Shown here piece by piece: positions 60,711 through 64,000 of a DNA stretch of 64,000 nucleotides (its first letter is position 1; every line of letters starts with the position of its first letter). Made by a program: the position numbers and the translations under genes. Source of the stretch: Hormiphora californensis (lineage: Eukaryota; Animalia; Ctenophora); NCBI GenBank assembly GCA_020137815.1, contig CM035360.1:6014001-6078000 (forward strand), given 5' to 3'. The notes beneath the pieces were generated by a model. That model made no database searches, was not told the origin of the DNA, and saw nothing but the letters and a program-made list of their open reading frames with translations.

Positions 60711-62021
60711 ATGGATTCTGTAGCCTCAGTTAGTATGGATATTTTAGAGCAAGAAGATCCGTCCAACGAATACTGGAGAGCTAAATATCTGCACATATTG
60801 GAACACAGTAGAAAAGTACTGCAGGTAGGGGCTATCTGAAACTCACCCCTTCCCTTGTTCATATCTGTCTTGAGAAGTTTCTTTTGTCCGATGCGATATC
60901 ACTCTTCCTCTCTCTCTTAGAGCAATCGTCACCACCAAGCCAAAATCAAGAGGATAAATAAAAACATCCGCCGCATCTCTAAACAGAACCAGTAAGTCAT
61001 CACCACAAACACACTTTGTGTATAAAACAGTGTACACGACTCTCTCGCCCTCTCATAAACAGAACGCCATTTATAGACGCTGCCCCTGTTGTTGCAGTAA
61101 CGCGCGGAGTCGATTTAGCAGAAATGATGGCGCGCCAATACAATTTGTACATCACACGCGCGCGGGACACTGTTGGTCGTGTATTGTACATTTTCAGAAC
61201 ACAGCATTTATCTGAATACAATATCTCCATCTTTCTAACCTAACCATTGTATTCGTCAGGTATTTTGTACAAGTTTTGAAGGGTCATGGAGACGATTTTG
61301 GGCTTCATTGCCCCTCTGTGTGGGAGAAAATAGCATATCCTGGAGCAATATCAGAACCCTTGTTGGAAGCCAAAACTCACACGAAGAAACCACCAAACGC
61401 GTTCTTTTTGTACTGCAAAGAAAACAGGGACTCAGTTAAGAAACAGGTAGAATGATAGTATTTAGATCTCAAATCGATTATTGGAGACTCTATACTATAG
61501 TTTCCTATCACCCATCATGTCACCTATCAGAGTTCAACTATTTTCTATCTTCAGATCCGGGAGTCTCCGCAGGGAATGTTTGATGCCAGGAATGAGATAA
61601 CTCGGCAACTTGCCAAGGATTGGAATGCCCTCCCACAAGAGGAACGAGAGGTAAACATCACAATTTTCCTATTTCGATTGCTGCAAATTCATGTACAATT
61701 CCTCTCACTAAAATGTCTCATCCCTCTCAGAAATACTTTGAGAAGTACAGAGAGAACATCGAGGAGTACGAAGAGGGTATCCGAGAGGAGCGAAGAAGGA
61801 ACCGACTAATGTTTGCTATGAGCAGTAGTGAAAGTGAATCTGAATTGCTACCAGACCAAGATCAACAGAATGACAATAATAATCAGACACCTGCCCATAA
61901 TTCCTTTAGTAATCAACCGTTCGAGGGACATCACCCTTTCCATCACCTGTTTGCTAACGGCAGGGCGTCCACATCATCAGGATTCCCTGGACCCTTCAAG
62001 ATGAACAGTAATAAGGGATGA
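60711..62021 (+). CDS. HMG-box protein with an N-terminal coiled coil (INO80E/TFPT/Nhp10-like architecture, tentative), 5 exons
   Basis: KKPPNAFFLYCKENR...EITRQLAKDWNALPQEERE|KYFEKY HMG box; N-terminal YWRAKY..coiled coil. Confidence 0.75.
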
Positions 62022-62255
62022 TGATGATGACTCTGTCTGAGCATCAGTTTGTTTATGTGGATTAATTCAAGAATCTAGACATGGTTCCCAAGAGTTGCCG
62101 CGGACACAAATAACTGATATTTTGGTGGCGTAAAAAAGGTTGTCATATTGATACACAAACATTCAGATACACAACATTCACATTCACAAAGATTGTTACG
62201 GTATTCTGGCTAAGAGTTTTCTCAATTAAAAGTCCAGCTTTCGACCCAAAGTTTA

Positions 62256-62423
62256 TTATTTTAGTTTAACCGTTATCGTGTGCCATGCATTGCTAAGGCA
62301 GCCCCGTAGATTCCAGATATTTCGAACTTTTTCAGGTTGTCGGTTGTAATTTGCATCCACCGCACAACACGTCACCTTCACTTCATCACCAGGGTTCACT
62401 CCCTCTGGTAGGGGCACTTCAAT
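62256..62423 (-). CDS. SUOX: Sulfite oxidase, last exon (remainder lies beyond the window)
   Basis: CAVDANYNRQPEKVRNIWNLRGCLSNAWHTITV* matches the sulfite oxidase C-terminal signature; TTTCAG acceptor. Confidence 0.88.
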   Translation of the reverse strand: MEVPLPEGVNPGDEVKVTCCAVDANYNRQPEKVRNIWNLRGCLSNAWHTITVKLK

Positions 62424-62440
62424 CTGAAATAGAGAGAGAG

Positions 62441-62501
62441 TTGTTATGTTCTAACCCTCCCTTTACATTTGTAAACACAGTCTAGCGGTCTAGCTAGGCA
62501 A
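62441..62501 (+). mobile_element. Mini-element TTG...CAA family (61 bp)
   Basis: Same termini; TSD only partial (AGAG). Confidence 0.7.
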
Positions 62502-62810
62502 AGAGTTGGAGTGAACAATTACAAAGTAGGTAATATGAATATTTAATTGTTTGATAGGGGTAATTCCTGTGTGAAACCAATGTTATTGTTTGATCTATCC
62601 CTTGTTTTATCTATTAAATTATCCAGAAACTTATGTGAGTGTGTTTGTATAAGAAACATAAACGTGGCCTATTATGGCGCCAGCACAAAAACCGGTAATG
62701 CAATGGATAAACCGGATACAGCCGCATATGCAGGAAAATTATCCCACGGTATACGACTTCTGCGCGCTGGTCTCTATTCAGTGTGTATCGCGCGTTACGT
62801 TTATGCGATG

Positions 62811-62854
62811 GAGTTTCAAACTTTTCAACACTACTTTAAACAAATTAATTTGAG
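62811..62854 (+). ncRNA. Spliced-leader exon sequence (ctenophore type), not followed by a GT donor
   Basis: GAGTTTCAAACTTTTCAACACTACTTTAAACAAATTAATTTGAG matches the ctenophore SL as recalled from memory (not verified by search). Confidence 0.8.
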
Positions 62855-64000
62855 ATCTCTTCCAACCCGGCCCTCGCGGTCGGCTAGGTATAGTCATGAC
62901 GAAAAGAACGAAGAAGAGAACGACGAAGATCACCGTTCCCCCTTCCTCGTCATCGGATTCATGCCCAACATGTAACATCCACTGGGACGATGAAGACGAC
63001 ATCCCCTGTGTGGCTTGTGACAATTGTAACACGTGGTTTCACATCAGATGTGTCGGTATCCCCGATCATTCTTTCTCAAACCTCTCTGAGTCCACCAAAT
63101 GGTACTGTGCTCGCTGTCTTAGAATCCCAGATATTGTACCCGCTACCCCCCTCAAGGCATCATGGGGAAAGCTGTCAGGTCCAGCTCTATCAAACTCTTT
63201 GTTCAGCATCCACTCCAAAATCTCTTCTTTCCGGCCAAACCTTTTCAAACTACCTTCTGGCAAAGCTGGTAAAATGTTTGTAAGTGAGGCTACGAGACTC
63301 GTCAGTGAATGGACTTCTTCTTCCCCCCTCGAGAGTGTTGCACTGACTGCACTACACCTCATGGGTCCTCTTCTTCTTCAAAACCCGGGGCGTAAATCAA
63401 AAACATCTGAGCAATCTGCTGCCCTTCTCCGTCGATTTCTCCTTTGGCAGACGGGAGATTTCGATGCTCTTTTGTCGGAATGCACTGTTATTCAATCCAG
63501 GTTACCCAAGTCCACCGCTGCCGACAATAGGAAAGGTTTTGTTCGGATGATGTTTATCGGGAGAGTAGGGGCTGCTATGAGACTTCTTAGTGCCACTCCA
63601 TCGGCTGCCCTAGAGATAACTCCAGCAGTGGTGAAAGACCTAAAGGAGAAACACCCAGAGGCAGCTCCTCTAAACCCTGACCACGTCATTTCTACCGACG
63701 TACCCCCTTCTTTTGAGCCTGCCATATTTTTCAATCTTAATGCTGACAGCATCAAACGAGCTGCAGCAGCCACGAAAGGCGGTGCTGGACCCAGTGGGAT
63801 GTCAGACCATCTATGGGCCCGTATGTTGTGCAGTAAAGCATTCGGAAAATCATCGGAGTCCCTTGCCCATGAAGTGGCTCTGATGACTAGAAGACTGTGT
63901 ACAGTGTACGTTGACCCTATCTCGCTGAGTGCACTACTATCGTGTAAACTGATCGCTCTAGACAAGAATCCGGGTGTCCGTCCTATTGGTGTAGGTGAGG
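62855..64000 (+). mobile_element. CRE-clade non-LTR retrotransposon, 5' part; ORF from ATG 62896 open to the window end (PHD finger, then start of the RT)
   Basis: CPTC...VACDNCNTWFHIRC...WYCARC PHD; NLFKLPSGKAGKMF, LLLQNP, LWQTGDFDALLSE, LKEKHP, GGAGPSG, LIALDKNPGVRPIGVGE, typical of metazoan CRE ORFs; no stop codon seen. Absent from the ORF track because it runs off the window. Confidence 0.88.

Follow-up and report, generated by a model that had tools for sequence, protein, structure and literature searches.

An R2-like retrotransposon headed by the host spliced leader, probably acquired through trans-splicing, in the ctenophore Hormiphora californensis

A 64,000-nucleotide stretch of the Hormiphora californensis genome (hereafter the window; GenBank assembly GCA_020137815.1, contig CM035360.1, positions 6,014,001 to 6,078,000, forward strand) contains an R2/CRE-type element that opens with the complete 43-base spliced leader (SL) of the host and whose RNA was very probably trans-spliced before being reverse transcribed into a site that is not an SL gene. 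A preliminary description of the window had reported a 44-nt SL-like exon, and positions 62811–62854 (plus strand) are indeed identical, at 44 of 44 positions, to the SL published for this species (PMC8527503), which removes the possibility that the 44-mer is not the species' leader. Direct reading, from GAG to TTTGAG, also confirmed that the exon is followed by ATCTC without a GT donor, then by the remainder of a 41-nt stretch up to an ATG at 62896, and by an open reading frame; the exon–donor–intron arrangement of an SL RNA gene is thus absent here. The window contains the terminal 35 nt of the 44-mer a single time, none of 100 shuffles contains them, and an Rfam scan of 61000–64000 yielded two chance-level matches, neither to an SL or snRNA family.

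The SL is complete, as first described, but the leader proper is 43 nt long and starts at A62812 (62812–62854, plus strand), being identical both to the leader in PMC8527503 and to the SL RNA gene in locus L068 (see below). We assign G62811 to the host because the empty allele matches as far as 62813 and the SL gene has C at that position, and because G appears in none of 11 other genomic-type copies, one of which is on a contig that ends before that position. The GAG junction (62811–62813, plus strand) therefore consists of host target bases, with AG doubling as the first two bases of the SL (microhomology). A 43-nt contig from run X12, which we guess to be RNA, spans exactly 62812–62854, the SL alone being covered within the 221 nt compared. 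According to the genome paper, H. californensis contains 718 genomic copies of the leader, and the SL is present on 56% of Iso-Seq reads (PMC8527503).

We compared five of the 14 listed public DNA runs, taking contig depth as a rough copy measure only; X1 and X3 derive from one sample (S1), possibly the window's own source, and X5 from sample S2 of a separate study. One contig each from X1 (record 5, depth 33.5) and X5 (record 18, depth 606.7) follows the flank to 62813 and then extends, by 149 and 155 letters that we know by number alone, into DNA matching nothing in the stretch compared. These contigs represent an allele without leader and element, indicating that the leader belongs to the insert. 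In X1, the contig of the window-type element (788 nt, zero differences) is as deep as the empty contig (32.4 and 33.5), which fits a heterozygote. In X5, flank and SUOX exon have similar depths (606.7 and 537.6), so that the window site looks empty in this sample and its SL–UTR junctions lie elsewhere.

Exact SL–UTR junctions, on contigs that fall short of the 31 letters per side required by the rule we used (21–25 on the SL side, 29 on the UTR side), were recovered from X1 (62834–62883, depth 216), X3 (62830–62883, depth 1220.8) and X5 (62832–62883, depth 940.9). Flank depths were 33.5, 269 and 606.7, respectively, and the junction between SL and element is thus 1.5–6 times deeper than the flank, suggesting that other copies of the family are likely SL-headed. 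This excess, together with the recurrence of the junction in a second sample, speaks against a scenario considered at the outset, in which no other copy would be associated with an SL. In X3, the flank continues into the leader, to 62838, on a contig that reaches 25–28 letters into the SL and is likewise below the rule. The upstream DNA of the window is at single-copy depth in the public DNA runs, and the depths of the leader sum to hundreds of thousands; beyond both edges of the leader, the loose contig ends differ from one another (agreement mostly 0.4–0.55 wherever at least five contigs come together), which fits leader copies set in unrelated surroundings. The window copy therefore has what defines an SL-tagged retrocopy: the leader is fused to the copied sequence precisely at its 3′ terminus, and the site before insertion lacked it. 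The insertion is polymorphic and likely recent.

The insertion lies antisense in an intron of a sulfite-oxidase-type gene (SUOX), in agreement with the preliminary description. The last coding exon (62256–62423, minus strand; stop TAA 62258–62256) matches Pfam Mo-co_dimer over 62259–62423 (E 4e-8, profile positions 98–136 of 138) and adjoins the acceptor TTTCAG (62429–62424) of the host intron (62424–64000, minus strand), whose donor is beyond the window, as presumably are the remaining parts of SUOX. The DNA at the insertion site (62660–62810) had been called CpG-rich and promoter-like; it is CpG-rich, with 14 CpG in 151 nt, a count reached by 0.5% of the 151-nt stretches in the window, but it is single-copy host DNA, shared with the empty allele and with organism B and unrelated to the DNA upstream of the SL gene, and not an SL-gene promoter. 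We rejected the notion that this upstream DNA is conserved and hence a promoter, since organism B diverges there (23 differing letters plus 11 gaps over 231) about as much as in a piece of the SUOX exon (11 in 100). An acceptor-like CAG (62779–62781) sits 26 nt 5′ of an ATG at 62808, an arrangement found in ctenophore trans-spliced genes, and the insertion may have struck a nested gene at its beginning, with the CpG-rich DNA upstream being its promoter.

The element begins, after the leader, with a 41-nt 5′ UTR (62855–62895, plus strand), defined by the sequence and by the exact junction contigs from X1, X3 and X5, and continues as an open reading frame (62896–64000, plus strand) of 368 amino acids that is still open at the window edge, where the reverse transcriptase (RT) core starts. 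It encodes a PHD finger (amino acids 23–74, about 62962–63117; E 3e-7). The nearest full-length relative (P0001; 1023 amino acids, 71% identical) has PHD and RT domains and, by motif pattern, YADD, a CCHC finger and a C-terminal endonuclease-type PD-(D/E)xK motif. A profile of 68 sequences matched R2 chains exclusively in the PDB (five of five matches), and the structure model of P0001 (pLDDT 89) placed R2 at Foldseek ranks 1–7, over about 900–1050 columns. Judged from the sequence and predicted fold of P0001, as the window copy ends before the RT and endonuclease domains, the element is a non-LTR retrotransposon with a restriction-like endonuclease (RLE), similar to R2. The initial reading of a CRE-type frame holds to this extent, and the name CRE, which presumably applies, derives from a resemblance in motifs. 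In a quick tree (62 rows, midpoint root, built with no named CRE reference), the window frame groups with P0001–P0007 (SH-aLRT 99). Searches of the ESM Atlas returned unnamed RVT_1 clusters only, and none of 12 viral candidates proved to be related to the frame. By sequence, the PHD finger of P0001 resembles those of PHF2, ING and BPTF, and a finger of this kind could steer insertion to promoter chromatin, fitting the CpG-rich site.

To find other leader copies we scanned metagenome contigs for exact matches to the last 25 nt of the SL, a procedure that forces these 25 bases and hides diverged leaders, obtaining 107 matches at 106 loci. Of these loci, 93 are mRNA-like contigs that start with the leader; their longest frames match ordinary cellular Pfam families in 72 cases and nothing in 21, the families listed including neither an RT nor an endonuclease. 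No CRE-type protein was detected in the 106 loci by tblastn with five relatives as queries, and no viral contig had the SL pattern. Two sets (Ga0233438 and ERZ1046148) are DNA-like, in that they contain internal, flanked leaders and a 5S array and no leader-headed ordinary mRNA, their DNA nature and species being presumed on these grounds. Their 11 loci comprise seven in which the SL precedes a two-ORF LINE with an APE-type endonuclease, three that probably do so, and one SL gene. Assignment was by RT and APE matches (L029, L032, L049), an APE match (L066), or 71–92% DNA identity to these four or to one another (L020, L098, L105). The three probable LINEs (L054, L096, L101) have a post-leader motif in common with L009 and with L063, which has an APE match; L054 additionally shows a weak frame match to L009, and L096 and L101 were each judged on 300 nt.

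Across 11 element loci (counting L063 and excluding the SL gene), 28–43 nt of the leader are kept, 38–43 nt in nine of them, and there is no internal substitution, in a scan that itself imposes 25 matching bases. Upstream DNA is unrelated among these loci; two of 36 pairs of upstream flanks scored above shuffles (raw scores 19–20), which we took as chance. Five ORF1 proteins of SL-headed LINEs are only 31–59% identical. In L063, from an otherwise mRNA-like set, 351 nt of flank precede the SL and LINE, and L009 begins with the SL followed by an ORF1-like frame; the two look like the read-through precursor and the spliced product, respectively. Because unrelated APE-type LINEs carry the same leader head, the habit is not specific to CRE elements and likely reflects RNA processing by the host rather than target choice, and these LINEs were likely also copied back from leader-spliced RNA. 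The motif common to L009, L054, L063, L096 and L101 includes a GC-rich mini-hairpin in the first 45 nt after the leader. In L054, L063 and L101, TTTYAG directly follows the SL and looks a better acceptor than the leader's own end.

The SL gene among these loci, L068, has a 43-nt exon starting at A and followed by GTAAG, with C preceding the initial AG, and alternates with 5S rRNA in a 778-bp tandem unit (263–381, 693–800, 1041–1159). The SL RNA predicted from it has a better fold than shuffled sequences (z −2.2). Comparison of the DNA upstream and downstream of this gene with the window flanks revealed no resemblance, equal scores being reached by 31% and 41%, respectively, of 500 shuffles; the homology between window upstream DNA and intact SL genes that the preliminary description anticipated under SL-gene targeting was therefore not found. 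Relatives of the element were also recovered at 41 loci (L107–L147) from genome bins of bacteria and archaea, likely on misbinned contigs of animal hosts. Scanning of 15 of the 41 revealed no SL, 5S or snRNA family nearby, with one weak tRNA match (Rfam covering few SL RNAs), and the flanks of these 15 are largely unrelated. Direct repeats of 11 and 14 nt follow the A-run in L114 and L115, and L113 and L118 have possible repeats of 13 nt, the remaining examined loci having none or chance-like or simple repeats (all without shuffle control); from these repeats, a short target-site duplication is predicted for the window element.

We propose the following route. Element RNA would be produced, most likely through read-through from host promoters (step 1), and the host spliceosome would then add the SL 41 nt 5′ of the ATG, giving the RNA a capped and defined 5′ end (step 2). 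The PHD–RT–CCHC–RLE protein would insert this RNA by target-primed reverse transcription up to its very 5′ end, with joining at the AG microhomology at 62812–62813 (step 3). We hold these three steps, from read-through RNA to full-length insertion, to be highly likely. In a fourth step, the terminal AG of the genomic leader would itself serve as trans-splice acceptor, so that the same RNA is regenerated in each round, a proposal to which we give an even chance. Trans-splicing discards the outron, and a lineage with leader-first, full-length copies must consequently be re-expressed in another way; with reuse of the acceptor, the element would be able to dispense with both a promoter and a ribozyme of the R2 kind. 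GAG, however, is an uncommon and weak splice acceptor, which counts against step 4, and the better-looking TTTYAG kept after the SL in L054, L063 and L101 speaks against the proposed route as well. In its favour are the resemblance of L063 and L009 to precursor and product forms, the unmutated and near-complete leaders across divergent families (a pattern toward which the exact-match search is biased) and the similar re-splicing reported for dinoflagellate relics (PMC12014239). Tentatively, and at somewhat less than even chance, comb-jelly non-LTR elements of both RLE and APE types gave up their own promoters, the terminal AG of the SL being a portable acceptor that frees capped, unit-length RNA from any host read-through, and most published genomic leader loci are such heads.

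The preliminary description had offered two models, a CRE family that targets SL genes and reinsertion of an SL-bearing RNA. The latter is supported by the empty allele, the exact junction and the recurrence of SL–UTR junctions; the former does not apply to this copy, whose flank is single-copy, unrelated to the DNA upstream of the SL gene and free of SL in other haplotypes. Targeting might still describe the family if master copies resided in the SL/5S array and used the SL promoter, the intronic copy being an off-target daughter that received its leader in cis. The 5′ side of trypanosomatid CRE elements can hold a whole SL exon. These elements insert at a fixed position of the SL RNA gene (PMC12278014), and several SL-headed copies of our family, known from their SL–UTR junctions, could be such masters. 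Nevertheless, the window copy is outside any SL gene, non-specific APE LINEs bear the same head, making targeting unneeded, and the 15 examined relatives in other hosts lie away from detectable SL, 5S and snRNA genes, within the limits of Rfam noted above, and have largely unrelated flanks, so that we consider this explanation unlikely. The comparison with targeting by trypanosomatid CRE and NeSL elements drawn at first was in this respect misleading, given the same SL head on unrelated APE-type LINEs.

A further explanation disputes step 4 only: the leader would have been captured once per lineage and would now be copied in cis from an internal promoter or, alternatively, only hidden masters with native outrons would be active, SL-headed copies being dead ends. 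Internal promoters are usual in LINEs, Pr77 of trypanosomes being one reported case, and both the short post-SL motif common to the five loci named above and the weakness of GAG as an acceptor would agree with this explanation; copying in cis should, however, erode or mutate leaders, and these are unmutated and near full length across divergent families, with the search bias already noted. We regard it as a real possibility, if a somewhat doubtful one. Much less probable is a two-step origin, in which the CRE-like element landed at the 3′ end of an SL brought in earlier by a different SL-headed LINE, an event for which the 718 leader copies of the genome paper offer potential targets (PMC8527503), since it requires two insertions at one still-polymorphic site and several copies, as well as a second sample, have the identical, exact SL–UTR junction. 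An assembly chimera or one-off template switch is the most improbable of all: no single contig spans flank, SL and frame, and the authors of a schistosome study raised chimerism for their own cases (PMC5832876), but both junctions are present here as exact contigs and the SL–UTR junction also occurs in an independent sample.

Reinsertion from trans-spliced RNA, the reading we prefer, would set the element apart from R2, which has a 5′ HDV-like ribozyme and is the closest solved fold to the P0001 model. The 5′ HDV-like ribozymes reported for L1Tc/ingi would similarly cut a defined element RNA out of a transcript shared with the host. Unlike in R2 and L1Tc/ingi, the 41-nt UTR has no significant fold (hairpin z −0.79; z −0.5 to −1.1 for the UTR, L054 and L101 hairpins), and host trans-splicing would do the work of the ribozyme. 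Trypanosomatid CRE1, CRE2, SLACS and CZAR and nematode NeSL insert into SL RNA genes and, like the window element as judged from P0001, have a single frame with RT and a C-terminal restriction-like endonuclease and an SL exon abutting the 5′ end (PMC12278014, PMC4640811). The window element differs in sitting in a single-copy intron, to which it brought its leader along, away from the fixed SL RNA gene site of the trypanosomatid elements, and in its N-terminal PHD finger.

SL-tagged retrogenes are established in dinoflagellates, where DinoSL relics are leader-first genomic copies that arose by reverse transcription of trans-spliced RNA and are re-spliced at or within the relic; as reported there, these are host genes copied in trans, and the relics are usually truncated or in tandem (PMC12014239). 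In the window, an autonomous retrotransposon itself carries one complete leader, and does so in an animal. Use of host SL trans-splicing by animal transposable elements has precedents in Schistosoma mansoni, with six SL-containing elements that were possibly trans-spliced and retro-transcribed, or chimeric (PMC5832876), and in Hydra, where about 30% of transposable-element Iso-Seq reads carry the SL (PMC12220107). Those cases concern possible chimeras or RNA only, and the sections of the two reports dealing with them mention neither an empty allele nor a junction shared by multiple copies nor a pattern across lineages (PMC5832876, PMC12220107). No report of SL-headed ctenophore elements was found in the literature searched, which did not extend to Repbase and subscription journals.

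Insertion of leader-spliced element RNA would account for the 718 scattered leader copies of H. californensis, which the genome paper's account of them does not tie to transposons (PMC8527503), and would explain the false shared first exons that leader copies cause in annotation. Next to internal promoters and HDV ribozymes, it would be a further way for retrotransposons to renew their 5′ end, and the SL head would mark LINE copies that are young and full-length with an exact tag. As the window copy is polymorphic, apparently intact and from a culturable animal, the idea is directly testable.

Repeats within 62300–64000 were chance-like. In the same intron, 62441–62501 is a short repeat of very high copy number whose ends vary and which may be a fragment of a MITE or SINE, and an organism B contig omits 62439–62553, having different letters in that place. 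X1 also contains a sister subfamily, at about seven times single-allele depth, that has the 5′ region (62885–63030) in common with the window element and diverges after 62958. Over 62936–64000, the element of organism B is about 94–97% identical to that of the window, closer than the piece of the SUOX exon (89%), reflecting either selection or recent exchange between species.
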